Source: a virus (taxonomy: Duplodnaviria; Heunggongvirae; Uroviricota; Caudoviricetes). From it: a stretch of 64,000 nucleotides of DNA. The stretch lies in IMG/VR virus record IMGVR_UViG_3300028103_000015; one strand, given 5' to 3'. A program made the position numbers and the translations under genes. Shown here piece by piece: positions 1 to 63,699 of this stretch (its first letter is position 1; each line of letters opens with the position of its first letter). Below the pieces are notes generated by a model that saw only the letters and a program-made list of their open reading frames with translations, was not told where the DNA came from and ran no database searches.

Positions 1-1
1 C

Positions 2-349
2 GAAAACAAAGGATTCCAAAGCTGGTGTGCTGATATGTGGGCTGTGCTGTGGAACCTGTGGGTGAGAGAAAAAGAAGTGAAGGTGATTGAAGAAATGGGA
101 TTCAGCTGGGCCCCAGATCCTGTCACTAAGCTTGAAACACACCCCATCCTTCATAATGCAGGAATTGTAAGCACATCTATGGATGGTTACAATTGCTTCT
201 ATAAAGGTAAATACCACCAAGGAACAGATCCTTCAAAGGATGAACACTTGGATGCTGTACTAAATGATGAGAAATCAAAGACAAGGTGCACATGGTATTA
301 CACAAACGAATTAAAAAATCTTTTTAACAAATATAACCTAAACTATTAA
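2..349 (+). CDS. hypothetical protein; the reading frame is open to the window edge, so this is probably the C-terminal part of a longer gene
   Basis: ORF track 35..349. The frame stays open upstream to nt 2. It is co-directional with the downstream operon. Confidence 0.4.
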   Translation, partial: ENKGFQSWCADMWAVLWNLWVREKEVKVIEEMGFSWAPDPVTKLETHPILHNAGIVSTSMDGYNCFYKGKYHQGTDPSKDEHLDAVLNDEKSKTRCTWYYTNELKNLFNKYNLNY

Positions 350-366
350 CCATTAAATTTTTTACA

Positions 367-582
367 ATGGGAGGCATTAATTCTCGTCCTTTAAAAGCTT
401 ATGTCCGCTTCGATGGAAGTGGCAGAATAGTTGCAGGTAGTCTCATTCTCAGAAGAAAGAAGCCCAAGGTAGGTAAGTGGGTGGAAATTCCAGCTTATGA
501 GTGCTGCAATCCAACAACTACTTCAACAACAACTGTAGCACCAACTACAACAACAACTACAACAACTGAGGGTCCTCGTTAA
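367..582 (+). CDS. small protein: 45-aa conserved N-domain (CC motif) plus C-terminal poly-Thr tail; paralogue A
   Basis: 71 aa. LKAYVRFDGSGRIVAGSLIL...ECCN followed by a T-rich tail (TTTSTTTVAPTTTTTTTT). A tandem paralogue sits at 594..800. Confidence 0.6.
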   Translation: MGGINSRPLKAYVRFDGSGRIVAGSLILRRKKPKVGKWVEIPAYECCNPTTTSTTTVAPTTTTTTTTEGPR

Positions 583-593
583 AATTATAAAAA

Positions 594-800
594 ATGGCAA
601 ATCAAAGTAAACTGAAAGCGTATGTACGTTTTGATGGTACAGGACGCGTTATTGCTGGTAGTTTAATCTTACAGAGATTCAAACCAAAGGTGGGTAATTG
701 GGTGGAGATTGCAGCTAATGAATGCTGTAATTATACAACCACTACCACTACAACTGTTGCTCCAACTACTACAACTACAACCACAGCACCAATTGAATAA
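594..800 (+). CDS. small protein with poly-Thr tail; paralogue B
   Basis: 68 aa. About 70% identical to the 367..582 product over the N-domain, with the same ECCN-polyT architecture. Confidence 0.6.
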   Translation: MANQSKLKAYVRFDGTGRVIAGSLILQRFKPKVGNWVEIAANECCNYTTTTTTTVAPTTTTTTTAPIE

Positions 801-802: not shown

Positions 803-1216
803 ATGGCAAAATCATTATTTCCTTCTGACATGCTGAAGAGTGGTGGAGGAGAAATGTCTCTAGAAACTATAGCTGGGAAGCTTACATACTTTCATGAGCA
901 GCTACATCTTTTACACTGGCAGACAAGTTCATATGCAGAACACCAAGCTCTTGGTGGATTGTACGATTATGTACACGATTTTAAGGATGGGGTGATTGAG
1001 AAACTTATGGGCTACATGGGCAAGCGTCCCAAAGCACCAAAGATGGAACCTCTGTCTGACTCAGCAAGTGCTAGTCTGGTGGTCAGCGAGCTTATGAGTT
1101 TCGCCTCAAGCCTTAAAAGCTATGCTGAGAGCAATGGGTATCATGACATTTCAAACCTAGCTGATTCCCTCAGTGGTGAGGCTGCAAAGACCAAATATCT
1201 CCTAACCCTATCCTAA
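803..1216 (+). CDS. Dps/ferritin-like four-helix-bundle protein (short, 137 aa)
   Basis: The motif string LHLLHWQ..YAEHQALGGLYDYVHDFKDGVIEKL aligns with the Dps ferroxidase-region signature (FHWNVKG...LHEKFEELYDE...VDEIAERI). Assigned by eye only. Confidence 0.4.
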   Translation: MAKSLFPSDMLKSGGGEMSLETIAGKLTYFHEQLHLLHWQTSSYAEHQALGGLYDYVHDFKDGVIEKLMGYMGKRPKAPKMEPLSDSASASLVVSELMSFASSLKSYAESNGYHDISNLADSLSGEAAKTKYLLTLS

Positions 1217-1861: not shown

Positions 1862-2287
1862 ATGGCGAAGATTAAAAAGTATCAGATTGGTGGTAAAGCA
1901 AAAGCTAAACCAGATTCAGTGGAGAGCGAGATGTTTCCTGGGAAGAAAATCCCAAGATCTCAATCCAACTATGCCACTGGTAGAATAGCTAAGATGGCTG
2001 AGGCTGGTAAACCTAAGGTGGTGGCTATTAAGAAAGCAGCTGTTCCAAAGAAGAAACTTGGAGGTAAGCTTGCTAAACAAGCTGCTACAGCAATTGCTAT
2101 GAAGAAGAAAGGCATAAAGCCTAAAATGGATAAGGCTAAAGGTGGTAAAGAGATGATTAAGCGTGCTGACGGAAGCTATTCACAACGTGGTTTGTGGGAT
2201 AATATTCGTGCCAACAAAGGAAGTGGAAAGAAGCCAACTTCAGCAATGCTCAAACAAGAACGTAAAATAAAAGCTAAAGGTAAATAA
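1862..2287 (+). CDS. lysine-rich basic protein 1 (H1/protamine-like low-complexity); first of a tandem paralogue array
   Basis: 141 aa, about 25% Lys. It starts MAKIKKYQIGGK. AK-rich low-complexity sequence with no Cys. Confidence 0.7.
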   Translation: MAKIKKYQIGGKAKAKPDSVESEMFPGKKIPRSQSNYATGRIAKMAEAGKPKVVAIKKAAVPKKKLGGKLAKQAATAIAMKKKGIKPKMDKAKGGKEMIKRADGSYSQRGLWDNIRANKGSGKKPTSAMLKQERKIKAKGK

Positions 2288-2288
2288 C

Positions 2289-2645
2289 ATGGCAAAAATG
2301 AAGAAAGCCCAAGCTGGCTTAAAAGCTTCTACAAAGCGTGTAGGTCCTGTTGATCCTTCAGGAGCATGGACAAAGGTGCAGGAAATGAACCTTCCTCCAC
2401 GTAATGTAAAGACCAAGGTGAGTCTTACAAAGGACAAAGAACAAGGAGCTACATCTATGGCCAAGGGTGGTAAGTGGATTCAGAAGGCTATTAAGAAGCC
2501 TGGAGCTCTACGTAAGTCACTTGGTGCTAAACCTGGTAAACCCATCCCTGCTGGTAAGCTTGCAAAAGCTGCTAAGGCTAAGGGTAAACTTGGTCAGCGT
2601 GCTAGATTAGCAATGACTCTCAAGAAAATGAGCAAAAAGAAATAA
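2289..2645 (+). CDS. lysine-rich basic protein 2
   Basis: 118 aa. Starts MAKMKKAQAGLK. There is a 1-nt gap to the previous gene. Confidence 0.7.
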   Translation: MAKMKKAQAGLKASTKRVGPVDPSGAWTKVQEMNLPPRNVKTKVSLTKDKEQGATSMAKGGKWIQKAIKKPGALRKSLGAKPGKPIPAGKLAKAAKAKGKLGQRARLAMTLKKMSKKK

Positions 2646-3127
2646 TGCCAACTATCAAGAAACTCTTGAAGGTTGCTCCTAGAATGCGCAACACACTTCC
2701 TCAGAATGTAACAAAGGGGAATGGTGTAAAGAACCCACAGAAGGCATCTGCTTACGTGGGAAAGGGTGTGTTGAAGAATGGTGATACAATTGCAGCTGTC
2801 AAGGGGGCTATTACACCCGTACCCAACGGACCATTGATTAAGAAGAAGGGTCCATATGCTGGATCTACACTTAAGAAGGGTGGAAAGGTGACTGTGATGG
2901 CTGGTGGTGAGAAGCATGTTGTATATAAGAAGACCAGTCCAACAGGTGTTGGTAAGGGAAAGAAAGGAAACATCATGGTGAATCATCCTACAAAGGATAA
3001 GGGTAAATGGGACACCATAGATCTCACAAAAATAGGAAGAGCCAAGACTGTCAAACAGGGTGTAGCTGCTACCAAGAAATGGCACAGAGACAATCCTGAT
3101 TATAAATACAAAGGCAAAAAGAAATAA
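2645..3127 (+). CDS. lysine-rich basic protein 3
   Basis: 160 aa. Starts MPTIKKLLK. Its start overlaps the previous stop (TAATG). Gly/Lys-rich. Confidence 0.65.
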   Translation: MPTIKKLLKVAPRMRNTLPQNVTKGNGVKNPQKASAYVGKGVLKNGDTIAAVKGAITPVPNGPLIKKKGPYAGSTLKKGGKVTVMAGGEKHVVYKKTSPTGVGKGKKGNIMVNHPTKDKGKWDTIDLTKIGRAKTVKQGVAATKKWHRDNPDYKYKGKKK

Positions 3128-3129
3128 CC

Positions 3130-3588
3130 ATGGCTAGGATTAAAAAAGCACAGAAAGGAGATACTCTCAGAGCATCTGTTGCCACATTCAAAAGCAGAAT
3201 TGGAGACACCGCTGCTGTAAAGAAGAAAGCAGATTCTCTTGGACTCTCCACTGACAAGGTGAGGAGTGCTCTTAAGGCTAGAATAGCTGCTAAGAAGCAA
3301 CGTTCTGGTGGTAAGACACCAGCTTGGCAAAGAAAGGAAGGAAAGAATCCTTCAGGTGGTTTGAATGCAAAAGGTGTAGCGAGCTACAGAGCTGCTAATC
3401 CTGGATCTAAGCTTAAGACTGCTGTTACAACCAAACCATCTAAACTAAAACCTGGAAGCAAAGCTGCTAACAGACGTAAGAGTTTCTGTGCTAGAATGTC
3501 TGGTATGAAGAAAAGACTGACATCTGCCAAAACTGCTAATGATCCAAACAGCAGAATTAATAAGTCTCTTCGTAAATGGAATTGCTAA
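3130..3588 (+). CDS. lysine-rich basic protein 4
   Basis: 152 aa. Starts MARIKKAQKGD. Arg/Lys-rich, with a C-terminal ...RKSFCARMSGMKK..DPNSRINKSLRKWNC segment. Confidence 0.7.
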   Translation: MARIKKAQKGDTLRASVATFKSRIGDTAAVKKKADSLGLSTDKVRSALKARIAAKKQRSGGKTPAWQRKEGKNPSGGLNAKGVASYRAANPGSKLKTAVTTKPSKLKPGSKAANRRKSFCARMSGMKKRLTSAKTANDPNSRINKSLRKWNC

Positions 3589-4249: not shown

Positions 4250-4280
4250 TTATTGTTTCATAGTGTTGTTTGTTTAATAA

Positions 4281-4312
4281 AAGCCTCTTTTATCAAGAGG
4301 CTTTTTTATTTT
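4281..4312 (+). terminator. rho-independent terminator closing the basic-protein operon
   Basis: Perfect 9-bp stem AAGCCTCTT/AAGAGGCTT with loop TTATC, followed by TTTTATTTT. Confidence 0.7.
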
Positions 4313-4318: not shown

Positions 4319-4951
4319 ATGGTAAAACTAACATGTATATGTCCTGTGTGGAAAAGACCACAGAGAACTATCAGAGCCATAGAGTCTGTTGTAGCCCAGA
4401 AGTTTGATGGTTGGGAGGCGCTGTTTATTGGAGACAAATGCCCAGAGTTTCAAAAGAATATTGACGAGGGTGTATTTAAGAAATACGAAGAACAGGTGGC
4501 AGCTACAGGCAATCACATCCTCTTCCATAATATGGATGAACATTTTGGTGGATGGGGACATGGAGCACGCAAATATGGTATTGACATAGCTCAAGGAGAA
4601 TATGTATGCTTCCTAGACAACGATGATGTCCTATTACCAAATCATTTTGAGAACTATTACAGCTTTATGCAAGAGAATCCAGACATTCACGCAGGCTATT
4701 TTAATGCACGTACAGAGCCCTGGAAAAAGAACAGAACATCTTGTCTATCTAGAGGAGGCATTGGAAATGCAGAACTTATGATAAGAACAGATGTGCTCAG
4801 GAAAAACTATAGGCTAGATCCAGAATATGAACACGACTGGAGACTGGTGGATAGGATGTTAAACTACGGATATAAGTTTAAGAAGAGCAAAGCTGCTCCT
4901 ACATACATCATCATGAGTGTTCCTAACTACCGAGAAACCACTATTGACTAA
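4319..4951 (+). CDS. glycosyltransferase, GT-A fold / family 2-like
   Basis: DxD motif (FLDNDDV). The start is placed at the Met after the terminator, MVKLTCICPVWKRPQRT, a typical GT2 N-terminus. Confidence 0.65.
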   Translation: MVKLTCICPVWKRPQRTIRAIESVVAQKFDGWEALFIGDKCPEFQKNIDEGVFKKYEEQVAATGNHILFHNMDEHFGGWGHGARKYGIDIAQGEYVCFLDNDDVLLPNHFENYYSFMQENPDIHAGYFNARTEPWKKNRTSCLSRGGIGNAELMIRTDVLRKNYRLDPEYEHDWRLVDRMLNYGYKFKKSKAAPTYIIMSVPNYRETTID

Positions 4952-5631
4952 TGATTACAGTGATTATTCCTGCTTACAAGGCAACCAAATACATAGATGA
5001 ATGTCTTGCATCCCTGCAAGGGGCTGAGATATTAGTGGGAATAGATAATTGTAAAGAAACTTTTGACCATTTAGTGGGTAGAACAGACATAAAATCGTTC
5101 TATTTTGCACAAAATGTGGGACCGTTTGTTGTTAAAAACACATTAATAGACGAAGCTTCTAATGATAAAATCCTGTTCTTTGATTCTGATGATGTGCTTG
5201 CAGAGGGTGTGCTAGACAGAATAGAACAGGCGCTCAATATTGTAGACTATATAAAGCTCAATTACATCAACTTTACACACAATATAAATCCTAAAGGACA
5301 TGTAATGAATGATGCTGTAATAGCCATCAATCGTCCTGTGTTTAATGAGTTGAATGGATTCCAACCATGGAGATGTGGAGCTGATACAGAGCTAGCTAAG
5401 CGCCTTGAGTTCAATAAGAAGAAACATATAGTGCTAGATGATGTAACGTATTACAGAAGACTGCATGATAACAATCTCACTCTTAGGAAGGAAACAGGAC
5501 ATGGTTCTGTCATAAGACAGAAATATGTTCAATACATTGCTGCACACGAAAGATCTAAACAGTGGGAAAACCCAACACATAAACACACACAAGGATATGT
5601 TACTTATACAACAACCCATAGAGGAGCTTAA
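4951..5631 (+). CDS. glycosyltransferase family 2
   Basis: MITVIIPAYKATKYIDECLASL plus DSDD (DxD). Its ATGA start overlaps the upstream stop. Confidence 0.7.
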   Translation: MITVIIPAYKATKYIDECLASLQGAEILVGIDNCKETFDHLVGRTDIKSFYFAQNVGPFVVKNTLIDEASNDKILFFDSDDVLAEGVLDRIEQALNIVDYIKLNYINFTHNINPKGHVMNDAVIAINRPVFNELNGFQPWRCGADTELAKRLEFNKKKHIVLDDVTYYRRLHDNNLTLRKETGHGSVIRQKYVQYIAAHERSKQWENPTHKHTQGYVTYTTTHRGA

Positions 5632-6463
5632 AATAGCTCCTGAAGTGACAGTAGGAAATAGAAAGAGATATTCTACAGCCACAGCTGTAGCATGGATAAA
5701 TGATAACAAACTTGTATCAGCTGCCTTTAATAGCAGGAATATATATCTAATAGAGCTGAAAGACGATGGTACATCGCAGATATTGGATGTTATAAAAGCC
5801 CCATACAATCCAGACTTGATGGATTATAAAAATGGTATGATAGTCACATCAGACTATCCTTATTCAGATCAACATGGACATGCGTCCATATTTGATGTTG
5901 TAGATGATAAGATAGTGTACAGGAAGAGCATTACACTTCCTAACACCAAGTCTCATGGCTGTGAGATAGTGGATGATAACACTGTCATCATCACTAGTAA
6001 CAGTGACCACAATAAAGGCTGCCTGTTTGTAGACATCAATAAGGGGATAGTTAAAAGCACCCTAACAAACATGGACCACTATCCAAAAGATGCCTATATA
6101 AAGGATGACAGACTCTTAGTGATATGTGCAAAGAGTCTTCCCCAGATAGGACAAACCACCGTGATTGGTGAGTCTGTGCTCTACCTATTTGACCTATCTA
6201 CATTAAGTAGAATTAGTGAGGTGAGATTTCATGGACAGACTGACTCTCTCACCATGGATGGAAATGATGTGTTCATAACCATCCAAGGAGATGATACAGT
6301 GGCACATTGCACACTGATGGATGATGTATTGTCTTATTTTGGTAGAACTGGTGGATTCAACTTCCCACACGGTATAGATGCCCTAAATGGTAAAGTGGCT
6401 GTCACAAACTATGGAGACAACACTATTAGGATATATAACAAGGAAGAACTAAAGACCAATTAA
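5597..6463 (+). CDS. beta-propeller repeat protein (YVTN/lactonase-like) of unknown function
   Basis: Repeated ...DNTV...NGKVAVTNYGDNTIRIYN-type blades. The start is trimmed to the internal Met at 5597. Confidence 0.45.
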   Translation: MLLIQQPIEELKIAPEVTVGNRKRYSTATAVAWINDNKLVSAAFNSRNIYLIELKDDGTSQILDVIKAPYNPDLMDYKNGMIVTSDYPYSDQHGHASIFDVVDDKIVYRKSITLPNTKSHGCEIVDDNTVIITSNSDHNKGCLFVDINKGIVKSTLTNMDHYPKDAYIKDDRLLVICAKSLPQIGQTTVIGESVLYLFDLSTLSRISEVRFHGQTDSLTMDGNDVFITIQGDDTVAHCTLMDDVLSYFGRTGGFNFPHGIDALNGKVAVTNYGDNTIRIYNKEELKTN

Positions 6464-7102
6464 TGTCTTATAAGAGGATGCTGATGTAGCATTTTTCATG
6501 TAATACATAAACTCTTCACTAGCCTTAGCTTCCTCTATAGAGAATTCCCATGGGTAGTGTCTGGCCACATATGGAAATGTTGTAGACCCTCCACCTATAA
6601 AATACCCACCTAGCCTATATAGAGCAAACGTGGTATCTATTTGCACCTCAAGCGCCACATCTTCTTTAACAGGAGATTTCTGCCACCTGTCTCTTTCATA
6701 CAAATGCAGACGGTTATAATAGGGAGACTTGCTCTCCACCCTCTGCCAATCTAATCCTAACCCCACCTTATTCAATTCTAGGCTGTTCAATCTATCCTGC
6801 AGATAGAGAAGTGTGTCATTGGGTGTCTCTTCTAACCCCATGTCTGGGTCTGTAACAACATATGGACAGTCTTTAAACTGCCCCACTACACCCGCTAACC
6901 AGGGAGCAGCTACCCCTACATTATTATTTAACCTCATTATTGTACAGGGGTTGGTTGCATACCATTCTAGAAGAGGGGGATAGGTGGAGGCATTATCCAC
7001 AATAATCACATCCCCCACCCCGTCATATTCTTTTATTCTCTCCACCATAGCCTTAGGCCATGTGAGCAGATTTCTGTTATTTATTATAACTGGAATGTTC
7101 AT
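6449..7102 (-). CDS. putative glycosyltransferase (GT2-like)
   Basis: N-terminal MNIPVIINNRN...VIIVDNASTYP resembles the GT2 signature. Confidence 0.45.
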   Translation of the reverse strand: MNIPVIINNRNLLTWPKAMVERIKEYDGVGDVIIVDNASTYPPLLEWYATNPCTIMRLNNNVGVAAPWLAGVVGQFKDCPYVVTDPDMGLEETPNDTLLYLQDRLNSLELNKVGLGLDWQRVESKSPYYNRLHLYERDRWQKSPVKEDVALEVQIDTTFALYRLGGYFIGGGSTTFPYVARHYPWEFSIEEAKASEEFMYYMKNATSASSYKTLIGL

Positions 7103-7635
7103 CTCTTTTGTATGATAAGAAGTTTAGCATCGTTTACAAGGGTCATAAAGTGATCACGTCCATCTAACCACTCAGTGATCCTCTTGATAGTATCTTGTCT
7201 ATTGGCATGTCCAGCGTGTAAATCTTCAATAAAATAATATCCTCCTACTCTCAGATCTTCCCATAGTATTTTGAACGAAGCTACAATGTGATCACCCACA
7301 TGACTTCCATCATCAATAATAAAATGGGGTGCTCCACTTTTATCTATAACTCCTTTCATAAACTGTTTGTCTGACTGGTCTCCTATGTATATATTGAATC
7401 CAGACACATGGTTGTGCACATTAGGATCAATATCCACAGCATGTATGTCCAGTTCAGGATTGTATTCTCTCCACATTCTGAGAGAGTCCCCATGCCATAT
7501 TCCTATTTCTAGGAGTATATATCTTCCTGTCTCAGGAATGTACATATCATACACCTGTGTATATCCATGCTTCTCGTAGTGTTCTGTACCCTTGTCAGTT
7601 TTATTACGATTGGCAATTTCTGTAAGTCTTCTCAT
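7099..7635 (-). CDS. class I SAM-dependent O-methyltransferase (TylF/CmcI, Methyltransf_24-like)
   Basis: DKGTEH..Y and EIGIWHGDSLRMW (the SAM-binding GxWxGxS) match the macrocin/cephalosporin sugar O-MTase family. Confidence 0.6.
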   Translation of the reverse strand: MRRLTEIANRNKTDKGTEHYEKHGYTQVYDMYIPETGRYILLEIGIWHGDSLRMWREYNPELDIHAVDIDPNVHNHVSGFNIYIGDQSDKQFMKGVIDKSGAPHFIIDDGSHVGDHIVASFKILWEDLRVGGYYFIEDLHAGHANRQDTIKRITEWLDGRDHFMTLVNDAKLLIIQKR

Positions 7636-7639: not shown

Positions 7640-8206
7640 TTAGTTGTGTACGAATAACACTTTATTAATTTTCACAATGGGCTCGTCAGGGAACATCTCT
7701 CTGAACTTATTCACAAACCACCCATCAGCATCATATCTAACACCCAGCTCAATCTGCTGAGCTAAGTCTCTACGCGTGGCAAATGCTCCCATGTCAATTC
7801 TCCCATTGGCAGGCTCACATTGAAAATATGCATAGTCATAATGGGAATGCACCATATCCCAATAAATCATTCCTGGATTATTATTAGACGCAAGGGCTAT
7901 TTCTTTTATGAAGTTGGGAGTGTAATAGTTGTCATCTCCCGTCATTACAACATACTGGGCACTGCTCTGTTGCTTTCCATACTCCCTTGGTGTATGGCCA
8001 AAGTTGTTATAACGTATGTTCATCTTTGACCACATGATTCTCTTGTCCATTAAGCTTTGTACAAGCTGTACATTCTCTACATCCTCTGGATTGTCAATAA
8101 CAACGTGTGCCACCCAGTCTGGATGGGTTTGTGCTAATAGAGACAACAACATGCTTTTTAAGGGAACAATGCGATTATATGTTGGAATTATGAAGTCTAC
8201 TAACAT
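7640..8206 (-). CDS. glycosyltransferase family 2
   Basis: FIIPTYNR near the N-terminus and TGDDNYY (DxD). Confidence 0.7.
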   Translation of the reverse strand: MLVDFIIPTYNRIVPLKSMLLSLLAQTHPDWVAHVVIDNPEDVENVQLVQSLMDKRIMWSKMNIRYNNFGHTPREYGKQQSSAQYVVMTGDDNYYTPNFIKEIALASNNNPGMIYWDMVHSHYDYAYFQCEPANGRIDMGAFATRRDLAQQIELGVRYDADGWFVNKFREMFPDEPIVKINKVLFVHN

Positions 8207-8912
8207 AGTCTTTCAGCATTTGTGTGTAGTCGTGATTCCAATGAGGCTTAAGCTCTATTTCTCCTGTAGGTATTTTACCCTGCGCTCTTAAGTTTTCTAC
8301 GTGTAAACTATGTCTTTGTATGACATTGGGTTTGCCAGGAACATCGTGTCCTTGTCCAGACATGTGATATCCTCTGCCTCCCCACATATAAAACCAACTA
8401 GCTTCTTCTTTAGGAGGAGATGCAAAGAGTCTTCCACCATGAGCATGTAAACGTTCTATGAATGTCATATCATATCCAGCATTCTCAATAGGATGGCCAC
8501 CTATGGCTTCCCATGCAGACTTCCTAAATACAATACCAGAATTCCCTATCCATGTAATATCTGTTATTCTATCACCATTAAAGAACACTCCTGGGTTCCA
8601 ATGCATGATGTTCACATCATCTGTGAAATATTTAGCTACATTCTGTAAATGCCAAGGAACAGCAACATCATCATCATCCCACTGGCATATAATATCTCCT
8701 TTACAGATGTCTGTAGCGTAGTTTTCTTTGTCACCAATGGTGCTAAAGGTGTAATCCAGGTTGTATATTCTCACCTGTGGATGATTATATCTCAGCTTCT
8801 GCAGAGGATAGTCATTCACTATAACTAGCTCACACCTGTCTGCAGGGTAGTCCTGCTTGAGGAAAGAATGTAAACTCTCCTCAAGCGTATCCACCCTACC
8901 ATAAGTGATCAT
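8175..8912 (-). CDS. glycosyltransferase family 2-like
   Basis: MITYGRVDTLEESLHSFLKQ and QWDDDDV (DxD). Start trimmed to Met9 of the ORF 8175..8936. Confidence 0.6.
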   Translation of the reverse strand: MITYGRVDTLEESLHSFLKQDYPADRCELVIVNDYPLQKLRYNHPQVRIYNLDYTFSTIGDKENYATDICKGDIICQWDDDDVAVPWHLQNVAKYFTDDVNIMHWNPGVFFNGDRITDITWIGNSGIVFRKSAWEAIGGHPIENAGYDMTFIERLHAHGGRLFASPPKEEASWFYMWGGRGYHMSGQGHDVPGKPNVIQRHSLHVENLRAQGKIPTGEIELKPHWNHDYTQMLKDYVSRLHNSNI

Positions 8913-8913
8913 T

Positions 8914-9216
8914 TTACATGATATTAGTGGCAGCATAAAAACGTTCTACATCTTCTGATTCTAAATAGATTTCACTCTGAAAGGTGTTTCTCTGACGTTT
9001 AACACCCTTCACCTTATTGTTTCTAGGATCTACGTCAGGTACTTCCTGACTTCTTTCATGTAAATCATCTAACAAGACTAACAGTCTTCCATCCTCAATA
9101 CCCACAGTGCGAATCACCTTGTTCATGTTAAAGCTGTCTCTAAATACATTGTACACAGGATTGTCTGGTGTACCGCTCTTAAGCTCCTTACGAGTGTAAA
9201 AGAATTGATTTTTCAT
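8914..9216 (-). CDS. hypothetical protein
   Basis: 100-aa ORF tiling the leftward operon. Confidence 0.45.
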   Translation of the reverse strand: MKNQFFYTRKELKSGTPDNPVYNVFRDSFNMNKVIRTVGIEDGRLLVLLDDLHERSQEVPDVDPRNNKVKGVKRQRNTFQSEIYLESEDVERFYAATNIM

Positions 9217-18778: not shown

Positions 18779-18796
18779 GTTGTTTGTTTTTGAATT

Positions 18797-44765: not shown

Positions 44766-45295
44766 TGTTTGATAAACTCATAGACCTAATAACTCATTGG
44801 TGGAATTTTTTGATGCCAGCAGTGATCATACCAGACTATGAGGAAGCTGTTTTGCTAAGGGCTGGTAAGTTCAAGAAGGTATTGAAACCAGGGTTCCACG
44901 TGAAACTCCCTGTTATAGATGAAGTGATACAGCAGCATGCTGTTGTAACAACGTTGAGCCTTTCTGCCCAGTCGCTATATACAAAGGATAAACAAAACAT
45001 AGTTGTTAAAGGTGTTGTCAAATATAAGATATCTGATGTCAAAGTGTTCCTCCTGGAAGTATTTGATGCTCAGGATGCCTTGGCTGATATGACCCAGTCT
45101 ATCATCAAGAACATCGTCATATCCCTACCTCTAGAACAGTGTATAGATCCAGAAATAGACAATACACTTACTAAGAAGGTGAGGGTTGAAGCTAAGAAAT
45201 GGGGAGTTGACATTCAACAGGTTACGCTTACAGATATAGCCCCTATCAGAAGCTTTAGACTCATAAATGACACGATTACAAACAAACTTGATTAG
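44765..45295 (+). CDS. SPFH/Band-7 (stomatin/prohibitin-like) domain protein
   Basis: N-terminal hydrophobic anchor. DYEEAVLLRAGKF (compare EYERAVIFRLGRI) and WGVDIQQVTLTDI (compare WGIKVERVEIKDV). Confidence 0.75.
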   Translation: MFDKLIDLITHWWNFLMPAVIIPDYEEAVLLRAGKFKKVLKPGFHVKLPVIDEVIQQHAVVTTLSLSAQSLYTKDKQNIVVKGVVKYKISDVKVFLLEVFDAQDALADMTQSIIKNIVISLPLEQCIDPEIDNTLTKKVRVEAKKWGVDIQQVTLTDIAPIRSFRLINDTITNKLD

Positions 45296-50203: not shown

Positions 50204-51376
50204 ATGGCTGATTTTTCATTAACTACGCTCTTCGTAGTACCAGTAGGGCAAACTGCGCTCCCTAGCTCTGGATCTACGCAAGACCTAACAGCAGGTCAGG
50301 TGGGTATCTACCGTGCTGACTACTCTGTTGCCACAGCTGGTAACATTGCTGCTTCTCCTTATTTCTATATTGCGCAGGGCCGTACCAACACTTATCTGCA
50401 AGGCTCTAAGCGTTCTGATAAGATTAAAGGTTGTCCTTCAGGATCTGGTTGCAAAAGCAACGTAACTGAATGGTATAAAGTGAACGGTTGTCCTACACCA
50501 TTGACTCAAATCACTGATGTAGTAAACTGGAATGTACAATGTGGTGAGGTGGTAACCCTTACACTTCGTGCTCACTCTAGCTATTTAGACACTTTGTATT
50601 TTAACGGTTTCACTCGTTCAGTCACTGTAAATGCTCCTTGTTGTGAGTGTGACGGTAACCCTTGTGCTGCTGTTGATGTTCCTGCATTCATTGATGATGT
50701 AATCTATCATTTGAATTTGCAAGCTCCAGGTAACAACCCTGACAACATCACTTTGTCTGATTTCTATCAGTTCCAAAGAATTGGTAATGATGCAAACGCA
50801 TTCTTGCGTATCACTGGTAAACCATTGACTAAATATGGTCAGCCTTGTGACGTTGCAGCATTTCCTTTCGAGTATGACAGAATGTGGTTCCGTACATTCG
50901 TGTACAGTGGTCCAGCAACAACTGCTGACTTCATTGTGTACGATCCTTGTAACGTTGTTGCTGATCCTGTAGTTGTACAGCGTTCTTCTTACGCCACTGG
51001 TACTTCTGCTGAGATTGCACAATTAGAAAAGAACTTCTACAGCTATCAAGCTGGTTACTTGAAGCATCTTTACAGAATGAATGGCTACAACGAGAACTTT
51101 GAATCTTGGGTGAGCGATGGTACAACCTACACCACCTATTACATCAAGTTCAATGAGTATGACAAGTCTGTTTACAGCTGGGGCGATTATATCAAAGAAG
51201 ATAGCACTGTAATCATTGCTGTTGAAAAAGATAGCGCTGCTGAAGCTGCAATTGAGGCTGTTCTTGTAGCTGGTCTTGGTGCTGTGGCTGATGAGAATGG
51301 AGTTTGTGTAACTACCACTTCTACAACAACCACTGTATGGCCTTCTACTTCTACTACTACAACTTTGATTCCGTAA
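50204..51376 (+). CDS. hypothetical structural protein with C-terminal Thr/Ser-rich tail
   Basis: 390 aa, ending ...VTTTSTTTTVWPSTSTTTTLIP. Confidence 0.5.
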   Translation: MADFSLTTLFVVPVGQTALPSSGSTQDLTAGQVGIYRADYSVATAGNIAASPYFYIAQGRTNTYLQGSKRSDKIKGCPSGSGCKSNVTEWYKVNGCPTPLTQITDVVNWNVQCGEVVTLTLRAHSSYLDTLYFNGFTRSVTVNAPCCECDGNPCAAVDVPAFIDDVIYHLNLQAPGNNPDNITLSDFYQFQRIGNDANAFLRITGKPLTKYGQPCDVAAFPFEYDRMWFRTFVYSGPATTADFIVYDPCNVVADPVVVQRSSYATGTSAEIAQLEKNFYSYQAGYLKHLYRMNGYNENFESWVSDGTTYTTYYIKFNEYDKSVYSWGDYIKEDSTVIIAVEKDSAAEAAIEAVLVAGLGAVADENGVCVTTTSTTTTVWPSTSTTTTLIP

Positions 51377-57399: not shown

Positions 57400-60300
57400 A
57401 TGGCTGAACAGGAACAAGGTAATATTAGGCAGGAATATAATAATGCTACCACTGGTCTTAACATGGACCAAACCCCTAATCAAATACAGAAGGGGAAACT
57501 TACGTATGCATTAAACGCTGCTGTTGAAAACTTTGACTCTAATTCTGTAAACTATCAGAATGAGCCAGGGAATGAACTGTGTGTTACATTCCCTTCTGGC
57601 TTTGTACTTATAGGTAATCATTTCATCCAAGAAAGAAACAAACATGTATTCTTCATCACCAATCCAGACACTGGAGCTAGTCAGATTGGATATATGGAAA
57701 ACAATGATTGCGTCTATCGTGTACTTGTAAATGCTCCATGTCTCAACTTTAACACTAGCTATCCCATACAAAAGGTGGCGCACAAGATTACCAACTGCAC
57801 CACTGAGATATATTGGACAGATGGTTACAATCCCAGAAGATACCTAGACATTGACAACATTCCTAAGGTGTTGAAGTCTGGCACTCCTTTCTGCCATCCT
57901 GAGTATACAGACGATCTAGACTGTAATCAACTCAAACTCCAGCCTAATTTCAAGATTCCTCAACTGGATGTAACAGATGTCACTAGCACAGGAAATCTCA
58001 CTGCTGGCACATACCAGTTTGCTATACAATACTCTGATCCTCAGGGCAATCCTTACACATCCTATTATTCTGTTACCAACCCAACACCTATTGCTGATGA
58101 GTTTATTACATCAGTGAACTTCAACTATCCTGTTGGTAAATCCATCATCCTTAATATCAGCAATCTTGAGGACAGTGGGCTCTACCAATATTTCAACTTG
58201 GCGGTGATCAGAACAGTGAATGATATCACTTCTGTGGAGCTAGTGGGTACATATTACATTGATAATGTACAAAAGCAAATCACATACACTGGTCAGAACG
58301 TTACACAAATCCGTCTTACCATCAATGATATATTTGAGAAATTCCCTTATTATGATATTGCACAAGACCTGACAACAGCTCAAGATATTCTTATATGGGA
58401 CAATCTTACATCCATTGATCGTATCAACTATCAAAGCATTGCAAATCAAATCAATCTTCAGTGGGAAAGCTGGAGAATTCCTGCTAATGAGAATTACGCA
58501 GATGAATTGAATGCCACCAACCTTAGAGGTTATCTGAGGGACGAAGTGTATGCATTTGAAATAGTATTCTTGCTTAAGAATGGCAAGCAAACAGATGGAT
58601 TCCATATTCCTGGTAGGATAGCAACAAGCTTTGACTTAACACCAGTTTCTCCAGCAAATGATGACTTCATTGGAGAACCTGATCCTTTTACAGGAACCAG
58701 TCCATATTGGAAGATATACAACACAGCATCTGTTACAGGATTTGCTCCTGAATATTCCCCTGCTGATGACTACAAAGGACCATACCAATATGGTCAGTTT
58801 GCATATTGGGAATCTACAGACACCTATCCTTGTAATGCAGATGTTTGGGGTGATTTGGCTGGTCAACCAATTAGACATCACAAGTTCCCAGATATAAACA
58901 TCAGTGCTGCATATGAGTCTAAGATTTTCTTAGGACCTACAGCAATGGTGCAGGGAAATGATGCTGTATTCCCTATTGGTGTACATCTGGATATACAGCA
59001 AGTGGAGGCTCTCATTCAGTCATCTAGTTTGACAGATGACCAGAAAAGTGATATTGTTGGATTCAAGATTATACGTGCAGACCGTGGCACAAACAAATCT
59101 ATTGTAGCAAAGGGCATCCTTAGGAATGTGAATACGTATGAAAGAGAGAAGCAAACCTACTTCTATCCCAACTATCCATACAACGATCTTAATGTAGATC
59201 CATTCCTTAATGAGAACAACAATGCCTGGACACAGATTTGTGATGATTACACAATAGAGATATCGTCTCTTGGTCCATGCTCTGATGGTGGTGCCAACTG
59301 TGCAGAGGTGTTATACACAGATTGCAACAGTAATAAACAGGGTACACAGAAATATTATTCTACAGGAACATACCATTTATGTTCTACAAGCAAGCCTTTG
59401 GTGTTATCCCCTGCAACAGGAAGAACAGGACTTTCTACATATGATGTTTGGGTGGCAACAATATGTCCTCCTACATTTTTAAAGACAGGTAATAGGATAG
59501 AATGGGTTGATATATACAACGGACCTTCTACAGAATGGATAACAGGATGGCCAAATGTAGAAACATTTACATTCAATGCAGTTCCTGGAACAATCCCAAA
59601 GGTGATAGAAGGAACACCTGATAATATATGTTTCACTGGTCCTACACGTGTCACTGGTCCTAATTGTAAAATAGAAACTCCACAGCACGCTGTAACAGAG
59701 AAGTACAGACAGATATTCAACTCTCCTGAAACTTCCTTTGGACAGCCATTCTTAGGTGGTATTCTGAAGCTTGAGAGTGTAATGTTTGGTGGTGGCAAGG
59801 CCCATTTTGTTGAGGTGAAGAGCAATGCTAAATACAAGCTCTTGACAGAACAAGCTCAGGTGGATGCTCTTAACAGTTCTAATAAACTAGGTGCTCTCAC
59901 CACACCGTTTAGTGCCACTGCTATGTTCACCACATATCAGGCATATTTGACAATCTATGTAAACGGTATCACCAGAAAAAACTATGCTTATTCTTTCAAC
60001 TCTGTAGCTGATTACAACTATGGTGTTGGAGTTCCTGACAACCTTGGTATAAAGCAGAGAAACTTAGACATTGCTAGATATTTGATTCCTGGTGTGCAGA
60101 ATGTTGGTGATGTATACAACATCAACAACTTCCAGAGGGAATCATCTGTATATTTGAGAACTGATCTAGACAGACCAGCGCTTCCTTTCCCAGACCAAAG
60201 TCCTAACATGGTGTCTTCAGGAAGTCCTTTGGTTACAGACAAGTCTAGATTCACCATATCAGAGATTGGTAACTGTGATGTTCCTGGTAAGGAAGAAGAC

Positions 60301-63162
60301 ATATCTGTTGTGTCTTATTATGCTTCTATGAAGAACATCTTCCCAAATCAATATGGACAGATCTATTCATATGACACTGTAGACACTGGTTATCAGGCAA
60401 TTATAAATAGTGTTGACCAACCACGTACAGTGTTTGGTGGTGATACATTCATCAGTAGATTTGCATTCAAGAGCAAGCTTCCTTTCTTTATAGATAATAG
60501 GGTGAACGCTCCTGATGACAGTGATATATTCTATGATGAGATTGGTAATATAGCCTATCCAAAATACTGGCACTCAGCCAGATCTATTCTGAAGGATTAT
60601 GTAAGTAGTGGAGGAACATTAACCAACATCATATCTTATAAGGCTCACAACTTTGATTGCCCTAACGATCAGGGTGTTATTGTTACGCCTTCAATCACCA
60701 CTACCACAACCACCACTATTTTACAAGGCACCATTATTTCAACCAATCCAAACAGGACATACTATGATGGATATTTCTATCTGTTTGCATATGGTATTCC
60801 CAACTTCTATTGTGAAAGCTCTTACAATATTGACCTGCGTCAGGCGTTCAATAATAGAGAGGGTGATTTCTGGCCTCACGTGAGCACAGGTATTCCTGAT
60901 GACTGGGTGCAGCAAAGCTTTGTACCTATTGCTCAGGATAACACCTACTATTACAATGTGAGCTATTCTAAGCAAAACAGGGAGAATACATTCACCCATT
61001 TGCCTATCGACTGGGACAAACCTTGTTACACCTACTATCCATTCAGAGCCATCTATTCTGATAGCCAGAACATAGATGCTGACAACAGAGTGAATAGCTG
61101 GTTGATTTACAGAGCCATCTCCTATTATGATTTCCCTCAGAACTTTGGAGATCTTGTGTCTCTAGATGGAATTCAGAACAGAGCTGTTCTTGCTCGTTTT
61201 GAGAACAAGACACTCATGTATAACAACCTCCTTACAATAGATACAAGTAACCCTCAGGCTGCCTATGTAGGCAATCCAAGGTTGTTTAGAGGAGCACCCC
61301 CAATTGACTTCGCAGAAACTGATTTGGGATATGTAGGAACTCAAAACAAGATGTTATTGAAGATTCCACAAGGACAAGTGAGTGTGGATGCTAAGAGGGG
61401 TCAGGTGTTCCTAATAGCTGGAACAGAGGCTGTAGATTTGTCTGGTTTTGGATCTGGTCTTAACAGGTTCTTTACAGACCATCTGGCATTTGAAATCTTG
61501 CGTTACTTCCCTAAGGTGAACACAGACAACAACTTCACAGGGATTGGATTACATGGTGTGTATGACAGCAAGTATGACCGTGTGCTTATTACAAAGCTTG
61601 ATTATGTTCCTAAGGTGAATTCCATCATGTATGATGAAAATACAAGGACATTTTATGATGTTAAAGAAGTGAATGGTCTTATAATCAGAATACCTATATC
61701 TGTATCTGATGAAAAATACTTCTGTAACAAGAGCTGGACAGTGTCTTTCAACTTCAATACAAAGAGCTGGATAAGCTTCCATAGCTATCTGCCTAATTGG
61801 TATATTGGAGAAAACAACTTCTTCTATTCTGGTATCAACGGATGCTGTGATGACTTTGATGTGCTTGTTGGTACAATTGGACCTATTCCAACCACCACCA
61901 CAACTACAACACTTGATTGTGCTCTTGCAGGTATTGTGTATCTTTACAACTGTGATTTGGAAGGAACAGCAACTCCTGTAACTACTACCACTACATCTAG
62001 TACAAGCACTACAACCACCACATCTAGTACTAGCACAACCACCACATCTAGCACAACCACCACATCTAGCACAACCACTACAACGACTACCGCTCCACCT
62101 GAACCAATTTATAGTGTTAGACGTTGCTCAGATGACTTTGGTCCATACAAGATAACTTACGGTACTGGTGATGTACCAACCCTGGTGGGACAAGCATTTT
62201 TACTAAATAACGGTGGATCACCATTCGATGGAGCTACTTGCTGGTATATTGAAAGTTTATCAGTTGAAGGACCTGCTGATTATGCTGCTGTTGCATTCGG
62301 TACAGCTTATGCAGATTGTGATTCGTGTCCTTCTTTAACAACTACCACCACCACTGCACCACCTCCAGAACAATATACACTAAACTATAGCGATGTTGGT
62401 TGTGCAGAAGCTTGTGCAGGATATGGACCTCCATGTTCGAATTGCTCTACATATTACGCAGCAACTGGTGATCCATTGGCTAATGGTACGACAATTTATA
62501 CAGACTATAATCTAACAACAATAGCTCCAAATGGATATTATTCCAACGGAGTTTCATGTTGGACAATAGCAGGTAGTCCTGGTGGTGTATTAAATGCAGA
62601 AAGTGCCTGTGTAACTACAACAACCACAACAACAGAAGCCCCTGTCACCACAACCACTACAACAACACCAACACCTACCACCACTACAACAACAACTGAG
62701 CCACCAACTACTACCACTACCACTACAGCTGCATTAGTTTTGTCTAGTATATTAGTAGTTGATGATAATGCATATAGCACAACAAGCTTGGCATGTACAA
62801 GTAATATAAACCCAGGTAGTAGCGGAACATACGATTATATACAGGGTAAGGTGACTTGCACGTTGAAGGATCAATATGGAAATACCTTTACAAACAATTT
62901 AGGATATGCAGTGGATGTAGACATAGATGCTAATGTAACAGGATGTAGTCCTGGTACTGTACCATTCACTATATCAATACCAAACGGAAGTTCAAGTGGA
63001 TACATCATATATGACGTACAAATAACAGACAACTGTGGTGATCCAGATGCATTCTCATGTACACAGAACACAACAACTATGGATTGCATCACAGCAATTA
63101 CAAATAGCTACCCAGTTTATACAGGAAGTAATTTGGATTATTGTTCATCACCACCTTTATAA
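57400..63162 (+). CDS. giant (1920 aa) modular virion protein; C-terminal part is a chain of small Cys-rich modules joined by poly-Thr/Ser linkers; likely tail fibre or adhesin
   Basis: Single uninterrupted ORF. Poly-T runs at roughly aa 1096, 1497, 1527-1565, 1646, 1741-1770. Confidence 0.6.
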   Translation: MAEQEQGNIRQEYNNATTGLNMDQTPNQIQKGKLTYALNAAVENFDSNSVNYQNEPGNELCVTFPSGFVLIGNHFIQERNKHVFFITNPDTGASQIGYMENNDCVYRVLVNAPCLNFNTSYPIQKVAHKITNCTTEIYWTDGYNPRRYLDIDNIPKVLKSGTPFCHPEYTDDLDCNQLKLQPNFKIPQLDVTDVTSTGNLTAGTYQFAIQYSDPQGNPYTSYYSVTNPTPIADEFITSVNFNYPVGKSIILNISNLEDSGLYQYFNLAVIRTVNDITSVELVGTYYIDNVQKQITYTGQNVTQIRLTINDIFEKFPYYDIAQDLTTAQDILIWDNLTSIDRINYQSIANQINLQWESWRIPANENYADELNATNLRGYLRDEVYAFEIVFLLKNGKQTDGFHIPGRIATSFDLTPVSPANDDFIGEPDPFTGTSPYWKIYNTASVTGFAPEYSPADDYKGPYQYGQFAYWESTDTYPCNADVWGDLAGQPIRHHKFPDINISAAYESKIFLGPTAMVQGNDAVFPIGVHLDIQQVEALIQSSSLTDDQKSDIVGFKIIRADRGTNKSIVAKGILRNVNTYEREKQTYFYPNYPYNDLNVDPFLNENNNAWTQICDDYTIEISSLGPCSDGGANCAEVLYTDCNSNKQGTQKYYSTGTYHLCSTSKPLVLSPATGRTGLSTYDVWVATICPPTFLKTGNRIEWVDIYNGPSTEWITGWPNVETFTFNAVPGTIPKVIEGTPDNICFTGPTRVTGPNCKIETPQHAVTEKYRQIFNSPETSFGQPFLGGILKLESVMFGGGKAHFVEVKSNAKYKLLTEQAQVDALNSSNKLGALTTPFSATAMFTTYQAYLTIYVNGITRKNYAYSFNSVADYNYGVGVPDNLGIKQRNLDIARYLIPGVQNVGDVYNINNFQRESSVYLRTDLDRPALPFPDQSPNMVSSGSPLVTDKSRFTISEIGNCDVPGKEEDISVVSYYASMKNIFPNQYGQIYSYDTVDTGYQAIINSVDQPRTVFGGDTFISRFAFKSKLPFFIDNRVNAPDDSDIFYDEIGNIAYPKYWHSARSILKDYVSSGGTLTNIISYKAHNFDCPNDQGVIVTPSITTTTTTTILQGTIISTNPNRTYYDGYFYLFAYGIPNFYCESSYNIDLRQAFNNREGDFWPHVSTGIPDDWVQQSFVPIAQDNTYYYNVSYSKQNRENTFTHLPIDWDKPCYTYYPFRAIYSDSQNIDADNRVNSWLIYRAISYYDFPQNFGDLVSLDGIQNRAVLARFENKTLMYNNLLTIDTSNPQAAYVGNPRLFRGAPPIDFAETDLGYVGTQNKMLLKIPQGQVSVDAKRGQVFLIAGTEAVDLSGFGSGLNRFFTDHLAFEILRYFPKVNTDNNFTGIGLHGVYDSKYDRVLITKLDYVPKVNSIMYDENTRTFYDVKEVNGLIIRIPISVSDEKYFCNKSWTVSFNFNTKSWISFHSYLPNWYIGENNFFYSGINGCCDDFDVLVGTIGPIPTTTTTTTLDCALAGIVYLYNCDLEGTATPVTTTTTSSTSTTTTTSSTSTTTTSSTTTTSSTTTTTTTAPPEPIYSVRRCSDDFGPYKITYGTGDVPTLVGQAFLLNNGGSPFDGATCWYIESLSVEGPADYAAVAFGTAYADCDSCPSLTTTTTTAPPPEQYTLNYSDVGCAEACAGYGPPCSNCSTYYAATGDPLANGTTIYTDYNLTTIAPNGYYSNGVSCWTIAGSPGGVLNAESACVTTTTTTTEAPVTTTTTTTPTPTTTTTTTEPPTTTTTTTAALVLSSILVVDDNAYSTTSLACTSNINPGSSGTYDYIQGKVTCTLKDQYGNTFTNNLGYAVDVDIDANVTGCSPGTVPFTISIPNGSSSGYIIYDVQITDNCGDPDAFSCTQNTTTMDCITAITNSYPVYTGSNLDYCSSPPL
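61981..62095 (+). repeat. tandem 21-bp coding repeat (about 4 copies of AGCACAACCACCACATCTAGC-like units, encoding TTTTSST)
   Basis: Seen directly inside the giant gene. Confidence 0.6.
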
Positions 63163-63174: not shown

Positions 63175-63699
63175 ATGGCACAGACAGTATTAATAGTATT
63201 AACCACAGCAGGAACTAACACAGGCCCCTTTAGCCTGTATTCAAATGTGGACGGATTTGTAACACCGTTTGAACTTGGTGTATCTAAGGCAGCTCTTGAA
63301 GCTGGGTACACTTCGTTTCTTGTCCCTGATGGTGCAACCATAATCAGAGTGAAGTCTAATGGTGTATGTACAAACTACATAGATATTCCTTTTGGTATAA
63401 CCACAACCACCACAACATCTAGTAGTACAACCACCACTACGAGCACCACTATTTCAACCACATCCACCACCACTACAACTTATTGTCAGTCTATTGGTGC
63501 AGGAGCTGGTTGCTTCAACTGGAACTTTACAGCAGGTGGAACAGGAGCAATTGTACAATGGACAGATTGTAATGGTAACAACCAAACATCAGTGTTGAAT
63601 GAAGGTGAGTCAGGAAGCGGATGTTTGTGTGATGGTCAAACACCAAATGTTCTAGAAGGTAGTTTATCTATTATAAGTCAAGTGGGTACATGTCCATAA
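63175..63699 (+). CDS. virion-associated protein: N-domain, then poly-Thr/Ser linker, then Cys-rich C-module
   Basis: 174 aa. Its N-terminal domain is paralogous to the start of the next ORF. Confidence 0.5.
   Translation: MAQTVLIVLTTAGTNTGPFSLYSNVDGFVTPFELGVSKAALEAGYTSFLVPDGATIIRVKSNGVCTNYIDIPFGITTTTTTSSSTTTTTSTTISTTSTTTTTYCQSIGAGAGCFNWNFTAGGTGAIVQWTDCNGNNQTSVLNEGESGSGCLCDGQTPNVLEGSLSIISQVGTCP

Follow-up and report, generated by a model that had tools for sequence, protein, structure and literature searches.

Two small proteins with poly-threonine tails encoded beside a glycogenin-like glycosyltransferase gene in a crAss-like phage: candidate glycan carriers of the virion

Near one end of a 64,000-nucleotide stretch of the IMG/VR virus record IMGVR_UViG_3300028103_000015 (hereafter the window, meaning the whole stretch that was analysed) lie two adjacent short open reading frames (ORFs), ORF1 and ORF2, whose products combine a small conserved N-terminal domain, here termed the N-domain, with a tail rich in threonine. 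They are preceded by the end of a gene for a 338-residue protein, GT338, and followed by a gene for a DUF5856 (ferritin/Dps-like) protein (Table 1). The spacers between these genes are 17 nt (GT338-ORF1), 11 nt (ORF1-ORF2) and 2 nt (ORF2-DUF5856), and no promoter- or terminator-like site was found between the four genes in the window. ORF1 and ORF2 had been picked out in an initial annotation made from the DNA alone, which viewed them as tandemly duplicated genes, each encoding a small folded handle with an O-glycosylatable tail, and proposed for them a role as decoys, in capsid decoration or as secreted proteins. We used profile searches, structure prediction and comparative genomics to trace the relatives of these proteins and of GT338, and found that the association of poly-Thr tracts with GT338-type enzymes extends well beyond this phage.

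The two similar ORFs with Thr-rich tails exist as first described, with 33 identities over 44 residues of their N-terminal parts (75%; BLASTP, E = 9e-26). A profile search in six frames recovered only these two copies of the N-domain in the window. The 40-residue core follows the consensus LKAYVRFDG[ST]GR..AGSLIL.R.KPKVG.WVEI.A.ECCN, with 32 of the 40 residues common to both proteins and a nucleotide identity of only 70%; the codon differences in the core comprise 18 synonymous and 8 non-synonymous changes. These values imply that the duplication is old and that both copies have been kept by selection, and the two genes represent ancient paralogue types, each under purifying selection. A recent tandem duplication is ruled out by the 70% nucleotide identity together with the conservation of two distinct types, A and B, in related genomes (see below).

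The tails measure 23 residues in ORF1 (PTTTSTTTVAPTTTTTTTTEGPR) and 22 residues in ORF2 (YTTTTTTTVAPTTTTTTTAPIE), and each holds 14 Thr (about 61-64%), arranged as two runs of seven to eight Thr split by VAP and bounded by short non-Thr ends. The runs are as had been noted, and the description of the tails as almost pure Thr is a mild overstatement. ACA, ACT and ACC codons are mixed and interleaved along the tails, and the program TRF detected only imperfect periodicities of 12 and 27 nt, indicating that the poly-Thr tract is maintained at the amino-acid level. The mixed codons also rule out an origin of the tails as a pure trinucleotide repeat of the DNA. AlphaFold models ORF1 as a three-stranded beta unit spanning residues about 10-41 (strands 10-15, 27-29 and 38-41), predicted with confidence (predicted local distance difference test score, pLDDT, of about 89), followed by a tail predicted to be disordered, with pLDDT <50 at residues 59-66. 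We take ORF1 and ORF2 to be genuine, expressed-type genes of an aquatic crAss-like phage.

Searches of ORF1 and ORF2 against Pfam, PHROG and NCBIfam returned only sub-threshold low-complexity noise, and no relative of the locus or of the N-domain was detected by megablast or tblastn in 50,697 deposited phage records. A domain profile built from the two sequences recovered 1,585 metagenome-derived proteins (90% clusters; E <= 0.01), which form 908 clusters at 50% identity; ORF1 and ORF2 are no orphans. Among 185,579 species genomes, one per bacterial or archaeal species, the N-domain was seen at just four loci, all on contigs of metagenome-assembled genomes (MAGs). One of these, a 112-kb contig binned as Sediminibacterium, has the same order of GT338, N-domain genes and DUF5856 gene as the window phage and is probably the phage itself. 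From this distribution the family is best viewed as phage-restricted rather than cellular. The N-domain is strictly N-terminal, starting at residue 3-8 in 147 of 150 cluster representatives, and evolves with a ratio of non-synonymous to synonymous substitution rates (dN/dS) of about 0.12 over 65 distinct DNA versions; its two Cys, which form a Cys-Cys end, are nearly invariant. Eight of the 150 representatives are natural fusions of two tandem N-domains joined by linkers of 6-12 residues. In most members runs of Ser and Thr (S/T) follow the N-domain within a few residues, and the length of the Thr runs peaks sharply at seven (374 of 850 runs of three or more), with VAP, AAP and VEP as the usual spacers. 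Runs of seven Thr (T7) with three-residue x-A-P spacers give a 10-residue period, and the copy number of the runs varies from 1 to 4 among otherwise near-identical proteins.

Short forms of less than 100 residues, composed of the domain and one to four Thr runs (two being commonest), account for 199-200 of 407 distinct proteins. No conserved C-terminal motif was found in these short proteins; this, and the absence of a signal peptide, makes the suggestion that they are secreted unlikely. The remaining half or so are 100-1,292 residues long and bear C-terminal domains added beyond the linker. The domains recognized by Pfam in these long forms include BspA-type leucine-rich repeats, Fib_succ_major, Lcl_C (DUF1566), DUF285, Ice_binding-like, PKD, PQQ_2 and Peptidase_S74, the last of these being a fibre chaperone found at the C-terminal end of one member. 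By their Pfam assignments these are domain types of extracellular adhesins and phage fibres. The pair itself is confirmed, and a view of it as a self-contained unit needs correction: ORF1 and ORF2 are cargo-less members of a large modular family.

To place the pair in its genomic context, we scanned 80 related viral contigs and 4 MAG contigs with profiles of the N-domain and of the 338-residue protein. GT338 lies upstream of an array of one to four N-domain genes in all 79 loci that have enough upstream sequence, and the gap between them is at most 40 nt in 72 of these; in the five loci without GT338 the contig does not extend far enough upstream. Type A (...LR[RK].KPKVGKW.EIPAYECC), to which ORF1 belongs, almost always comes first in the array, and type B (...LQRFKPKVGNW.EI.ANECC), to which ORF2 belongs, usually comes second. 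Either position can be occupied by a short or a long form, depending on the genome: the array of one distant relative (contig L006) encodes proteins of 245 and 228 residues, the second with a DUF1566-like domain, and that of another contig (L010) proteins of 71 and 132 residues. The DUF5856 gene holds the same position in L006 as in the window. On L006, which is the Sediminibacterium-binned contig, a 51-residue ORF ending in T7VAP (6778-6933) is found just upstream of GT338, and before it are two genes for signal-peptide proteins, one of them porin-like (4737-6667). Contigs bearing the exact ORF1 and ORF2 proteins reach 111 kb. If the interpretation favoured below is correct, the locus would constitute a hypervariable surface-display locus of environmental crAss-like phages.

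The variability of the arrays also lends itself to another explanation, in which the poly-Thr tracts are mere flexible spacers and the short genes are tolerated but functionless stubs, left when recombination between repeated T7 linkers removed the C-terminal domain of longer members. Long forms do occur at both gene positions in sister genomes (L006 and L010), many genes have small domains bordered by T7 linkers, which are possible recombination joints, and the number of tail units ranges from 1 to 4. We nevertheless consider this explanation unlikely. Short forms account for about half of the distinct proteins and are what the type-A gene normally encodes, and the same short proteins are seen unchanged on 56-59 contigs. 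Purifying selection on the N-domain is strong, and only 2 nt separate the ORF2 stop codon from the next gene, where no trace of a lost domain is visible. Moreover, as described below, unrelated cultured phages keep analogous mini-proteins beside the same enzyme. Pseudogenization, which had been named as the outcome that would speak against the pair, was not found in relatives, where intact short forms are frequent and the first gene is usually one of them.

The full-length GT338 was read from a contig (L001) with an identical ORF1. The protein matches PHROG 4417, a family labelled 'unknown function', and we collected 2,570 homologues. It matched no family at E <= 0.01 in Pfam, including the GT8 and GT24 glycosyltransferase models, or in NCBIfam, and no PDB sequence at E <= 1. 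An AlphaFold model of a protein (P0271) 89% identical to the GT338 of the window phage has a pLDDT of 93.7 and a predicted template modelling (TM) score of 0.91. When this model was compared with the PDB by Foldseek, the top 50 matches were all to the catalytic domain of UDP-glucose:glycoprotein glucosyltransferase (UGGT) or to glycogenin, with E-values of 6e-7 to 5e-5, a probability of 1.0 and TM-scores normalized to the target of 0.45-0.60. A D108-x-D110 motif following a buried strand is invariant in 41 homologues; a GT-A fold with a DxD motif after a beta strand is a feature that GT338 shares with glycogenin (GT8) and the UGGT catalytic domain (GT24), which are retaining glycosyltransferases. 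Together the structural matches and the invariant DxD indicate that GT338 is a GT-A glycosyltransferase of the GT8/GT24 structural type; it is predicted to work like those enzymes and is not a member of either family by sequence models. Glycogenin and UGGT act on protein-borne acceptors. GT338 differs from both in sharing only 9-14% sequence identity with them and in having about 80 extra residues.

GT338 homologues are also present in 77 deposited phage records (24-33% identity over at least 86% of the length; tblastn), with hosts in Enterococcus, Lactococcus, Lactobacillus, Lacticaseibacillus, Clostridium, Staphylococcus/Mammaliicoccus, Arcanobacterium and Chryseobacterium. We examined 14 of these 77 cultured phages in detail. 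A poly-Thr ORF ends at most 76 nt before the start of the GT338 homologue in 11 of the 14, and one lies within 3.5 kb of it in 13, against a background of only 25 ORFs with poly-Thr tracts among the 937 six-frame ORFs of the 14 loci. In several cases the poly-Thr protein is an annotated structural protein whose gene adjoins that of the enzyme: the major tail protein of Enterococcus phage phiFL2A ends ...GTTTTTSTTTTTTSSTTTTTTTQASSK (...TTTTTSTTTTTTSSTTTTTTTQASSK), that of Lactococcus phage 1706 ends ...VTTTTTTTTTTHHD (...T10HHD), and the tail tube protein of Clostridium phage phiCTP1 ends ...ETTTTTNAPITTTTTTV (...T5NAPIT6V). Capsid proteins are represented by those of Enterococcus phage 4995_1 (...T6KPT7QA) and Lactococcus phage CHPC836 (...T6QAT5SHA). 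In the Lactobacillus phages Semele and PLE3, a Mammaliicoccus (Staphylococcus) phage and an Arcanobacterium phage, mini-proteins are encoded directly before the glycosyltransferase. These are built of a beta-rich N-terminal part of 50-70 residues followed by (T7-x-x-P) repeats. The 103-kb Chryseobacterium phage MA9V-3 (locus L089, 4615-7004) has, directly upstream of its GT338 homologue, three consecutive paralogues of 247, 117 and 428 residues with the common N-terminal motif GK.Y..L.E.D..TG.PTG..KPN.P.DP.YI.P....CP, which is followed by long S/T linkers in two of the three; it is the counterpart, in a cultured Bacteroidota phage, of the arrays described above. A comparison of the N-terminal parts of these cultured-phage proteins with the N-domain of the window gave nothing better than E = 0.9 (hmmsearch --max); homology between the two is not detectable, so we regard them as analogous. 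The recurring element is the pair of a poly-Thr tract and a GT338-type enzyme, and it is found in phages of three phyla. We found no description of this pairing in the literature on poly-Thr, Thr-rich or glycosylated phage capsid and tail proteins.

Some of these phages have two structural proteins with the same end after the Thr run: the protease and the major tail protein of Lactococcus phage 1706 share T9-10HHD, the capsid and tail proteins of PLE3 both end in T7SK, and two proteins of R3.3 end in ...SHA. The shared end motifs hint at a common recognition or processing signal.

The enzymes could in principle have other targets. DNA and host O-antigen are known targets of phage glycosyltransferases (PMC12619734), and were GT338 and the neighbouring glycosyltransferases of the window to act on phage DNA or on the host envelope, the poly-Thr adjacency would be a matter of chance, and the tails would stay unmodified and act as hydrophilic spacers or binding tracts. 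Coincidence is hard to reconcile with an adjacency that recurs in at least six unrelated contexts, after major tail, major capsid or mini-protein genes, and that spans phages of Firmicutes, Actinobacteria and Bacteroidota besides the 79 of 79 metagenomic loci. It also fits poorly with the rarity of such tracts at the cultured loci, and we rate this alternative as quite improbable.

Glycosylation of phage virions is in itself a known phenomenon. According to summaries (PMC12619734, PMC13313380) of the work of Freeman et al. 2023 (Cell Host Microbe), the C-termini of mycobacteriophage capsid and tail-tube proteins are O-glycosylated by phage-encoded glycosyltransferases, a situation that resembles the present one in the origin of the enzymes, in the putative use of C-terminal extensions as acceptors and in the proposed surface glycan coat. 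On the enzyme side, the window offers GT338 with its predicted GT-A fold and four GT2 genes; on the acceptor side, it offers the Thr-rich tails, which in cultured phages occur on annotated capsid and tail proteins beside GT338 homologues. Unlike the mycobacteriophage enzymes, GT338 belongs to a different family that has no Pfam match and a GT8/GT24-like fold. In the window lineage the putative acceptor is a strict poly-Thr T7-xAP tract whose gene directly adjoins that of the enzyme, and among the candidate acceptors are free-standing mini-proteins as well as an array of anchor-linker-adhesin cassettes. With an uncharacterized enzyme family, a distinctive quantised poly-Thr tract as putative acceptor and an uncharacterized anchor domain, the module would be a variation on a known process.

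The layout of the N-domain family recalls that of several virion display proteins. T5 pb10, T4 Hoc and fibritin and the crAss001 head fibres combine a small conserved module for attachment with a spacer and a variable domain that is exposed, and the attachment end of fibres is usually N-terminal. In the N-domain family the spacer is poly-Thr, in contrast to Ig-like domains or coiled coils, and ORF1 and ORF2 differ from decoration proteins and fibres in lacking any displayed domain. No sequence or fold similarity was detected between the N-domain and known decoration or head-fibre proteins (Hoc, Soc, gpD, pb10, crAss head fibre). The tails themselves are reminiscent of mucins and of the PT linkers of bacterial cellulases, which are O-glycosylated Pro/Thr linkers. 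The similarity lies in the low-complexity Thr/Pro/Ala tracts, predicted to be disordered and, in the window, encoded beside a glycosyltransferase; the differences are that the runs of the window family are quantised at seven Thr and phage-encoded, and that the tract may make up the whole C-terminal half of a 70-residue protein.

A further comparison is with the glycocins, such as sublancin and glycocin F, which are small ribosomal Cys-bearing peptides with an adjacent glycosyltransferase gene, as are ORF1 and ORF2. It could be supposed on this basis that the latter encode glycocin-like members of the ribosomally synthesized and post-translationally modified peptides, with the N-domain as leader and the Thr/Cys-rich part as a core glycosylated on Thr or on the Cys-Cys pair. 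The combination of a conserved N-terminal part with a variable C-terminal part indeed resembles leader-core logic, and the adjacent glycosyltransferase and the two nearly invariant Cys would also be in keeping with it. However, searches of the neighbouring genes with Pfam, PHROG and NCBIfam did not find a C39 ABC transporter, thioredoxin, LanM, YcaO, radical-SAM enzyme or cyclase, leaving the pair without the leader protease/exporter and thiol-disulfide genes of glycocin loci. The supposed leader also heads proteins of up to 1,292 residues with folded domains, about half of the family being 100-1,292 residues long, and the enzyme's poly-Thr partners elsewhere are phage capsid and tail proteins that have no such leader. 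GT338 also differs in fold class from the GT2-type SunS. A glycocin-like nature strikes us as very far-fetched.

On the interpretation that we favour, and which we hold to be about evenly poised between right and wrong, poly-Thr tracts would serve as O-glycosylation acceptors for GT338-family enzymes, and the mini-proteins would be anchor and glycan-carrier modules on the crAss-like virion. Given that the genes always directly follow that of a glycogenin-like glycosyltransferase, the ORF1 and ORF2 proteins would most likely be sugar-coated virion filaments. In this scheme, GT338 would start O-glycosylation on the Thr runs of the two proteins, and the four GT2 enzymes and a methyltransferase encoded a few kb away may extend and modify the glycan. 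The N-domain may be an anchor or a dimerization unit: it would form the attachment and oligomerization end, probably with A paired with B, and dock the glycosylated tail on the virion surface. The docking is suggested by the strictly N-terminal position of the domain, the fibre and adhesin types of cargo and the presence of the same linkers in tail-block proteins; the A-B pairing is suggested by the conserved gene order and the natural tandem N-domain fusions. We may also speculate that, once released, the chains become linked to one another through the two nearly invariant Cys. In the proteins of sister phages a lectin- or adhesin-type domain follows this putative anchor and the linker. With nothing carried beyond the linker, ORF1 and ORF2 would be pure glycan carriers, a kind of 'phage mucin' brush. 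The view of the proteins as small folded handles with O-glycosylatable tails is indirectly supported by the predicted beta unit and disordered tail, the adjacent glycosyltransferase and the pairing in cultured phages. A role in capsid decoration remains plausible, and that of a decoy has no specific support.

Glycosylation of the mini-proteins need not place them on the virion, and they could instead act as soluble polysaccharide carriers or primers released at lysis, or as competitive decoy substrates that regulate the glycosylation of structural proteins. Such a role could draw on the observation that the nearest folds of GT338 are protein-directed glucosyltransferases, among which glycogenin primes a glycan on itself, on the location of the locus in a region rich in glycosyltransferases and far from the head and tail genes, and on the lack of detected similarity to known decoration proteins. 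The long members with fibre and adhesin domains, including the S74 chaperone, fit display and not priming, and the partners of the enzyme in cultured phages are capsid and tail-tube subunits; on balance we view a role away from the virion as unlikely.

Several observations weigh against glycan carriers on the virion, the reading preferred above. Two of the 14 cultured loci, those of bIL285 and LP65, have no adjacent poly-Thr ORF. The TM-scores of GT338 normalized to the query are moderate (0.40-0.48), the Pfam GT8 and GT24 models are not matched, and a modelled fold of this kind would not allow the donor and the acceptor to be read from it. Poly-Thr proteins elsewhere in the window and in cultured phages lack the N-domain, which implies that this domain is not needed for recognition by the enzyme. 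ORF1 and ORF2 are more than 39 kb from the head and tail block within the window, and the 80 metagenomic loci are closest relatives that may represent one lineage.

The rest of the window is consistent with its assignment, based on its gene complement, to a crAss-like phage with a crAss-type tail. Besides two crAss-type ring genes it encodes a terminase, a portal and a major head protein, with replication genes on the opposite strand (Table 1). Three other likely virion proteins of the window carry tracts akin to those of ORF1 and ORF2. The first, of 390 residues and encoded in the head and tail block, has a poly-Thr tail built like those on capsid and tail-tube proteins of the cultured phages with GT338 homologues. 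The second, of 1,920 residues, has in its C-terminal third small Cys-bracketed domains with T7 linkers, including T7-EAPV-T7-PTP-T7-EPP-T7; the resemblance of these domains to the cargo of the long N-domain proteins suggests shared, shuffled modules. The third, of 174 residues and encoded next to the second, consists of two small domains with an S/T linker between them. Downstream of the DUF5856 gene is a set of four small, very Lys-rich proteins encoded in succession, whose placement is kept in relatives. A strong terminator-like hairpin between the block of small genes and the plus-strand GT2 genes may be where the GT338-ORF1-ORF2 transcription unit ends. Elsewhere, an SPFH/Band 7 gene occupies an unusual place between the portal and head genes, and rIIA- and rIIB-like genes are present. 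Shine-Dalgarno-like motifs precede only 5 of 35 genes; the scarcity of these motifs and the Sediminibacterium-binned and Bacteroidia MAG contigs point weakly to a host in Bacteroidota. Related contigs are about 110 kb in length, and by our reading of their names the related MAG contigs look aquatic.

Table 1. Features of the window, with the poly-Thr locus listed first. HMM, hidden Markov model.
Feature	Position	Strand	Size	Evidence and remarks
GT338 gene, 3' end	1..349	+	last about 116 codons	runs off left end of window
ORF1	367..582	+	71 aa	type-A member, N-domain and poly-Thr tail; identical protein (P0002) on 56 contigs
ORF1 N-domain core	391..510	+	aa 9-48	LKAYVRFDGSGRIVAGSLILRRKKPKVGKWVEIPAYECCN; HMM score 106.6 bits
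ORF1 tail	511..579	+	aa 49-71	T3ST3-VAP-T8-EGPR; putative O-glycosylation acceptor
ORF2	594..800	+	68 aa	type-B member, N-domain and poly-Thr tail; identical protein (P0017) on 59 contigs
ORF2 N-domain core	612..731	+	aa 7-46	LKAYVRFDGTGRVIAGSLILQRFKPKVGNWVEIAANECCN; HMM score 101.4 bits
ORF2 tail	732..797	+	aa 47-68	Y-T7-VAP-T7-APIE
DUF5856 (ferritin/Dps-like) gene	803..1216	+		Pfam PF19174, E 8.7e-14; starts 2 nt past ORF2
Four Lys-rich proteins	1862-3588		141, 118, 160, 152 aa	last one matches DUF6321
Terminator-like hairpin	4279-4305			11-bp stem and T-run
GT2 glycosyltransferase, candidate glycan-extending enzyme	4319..4951	+		Pfam Glycos_transf_2 E 3.6e-12; NCBIfam matches
GT2 glycosyltransferase	4951..5631	+		Pfam Glycos_transf_2 E 6.8e-9
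Methyltransf_24, possible sugar-modifying enzyme	7099..7635	-		Pfam E 1.7e-5; borderline, 26.1 bits vs cut-off 26.3
GT2 glycosyltransferase	7640..8206	-		Pfam Glycos_transf_2 E 9.2e-9
GT2 glycosyltransferase	8175..8936	-		Pfam Glycos_transf_2 E 5.3e-10
rIIA- and rIIB-like genes	17240-21097	-		PHROG 612 E 1.2e-55; PHROG 609 E 1.5e-14
SPFH/Band 7 protein	44765-45295			Pfam E 7.7e-25
390-aa protein, head/tail block	50204..51376	+	390 aa	poly-Thr tail ...CVTTTSTTTTVWPSTSTTTTLIP (TTTSTTTTVWPSTSTTTTLIP); PHROG 15060, function unknown
CrAss_Ring_2	55210-55938			Pfam E 2.3e-18
CrAss_Ring_1	56423-57394			Pfam E 6.4e-12
1,920-aa protein	57400..63162	+	1,920 aa	directly after crAss-type ring genes
174-aa protein	63175..63699	+	174 aa	internal S/T linker between two small domains

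These results lead us to a broader and more tentative proposal, whose chances we put somewhat below even, namely that a phylum-spanning, hitherto undescribed module exists in which glycogenin-like GT-A enzymes of PHROG 4417 write O-glycans on the T7 tracts of capsid, tail-tube and fibre proteins. The crAss-like aquatic phages would have expanded this module to hypervariable cassettes of anchor, T7 linker and adhesin, with ORF1 and ORF2 as minimal phage-encoded mucins coating the particle. If this is true, protein glycosylation of phage particles would be widespread, beyond the actinobacteriophages, and would be readable from sequence as a poly-Thr tract beside a PHROG-4417 enzyme. In dairy, enterococcal and staphylococcal phages, glycan coats could then bear on adsorption and stability, on recognition by the immune system and on phage therapy. 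It would likewise provide a role for about 900 clusters of unannotated small proteins and for about 2,500 unannotated enzymes of aquatic viromes.

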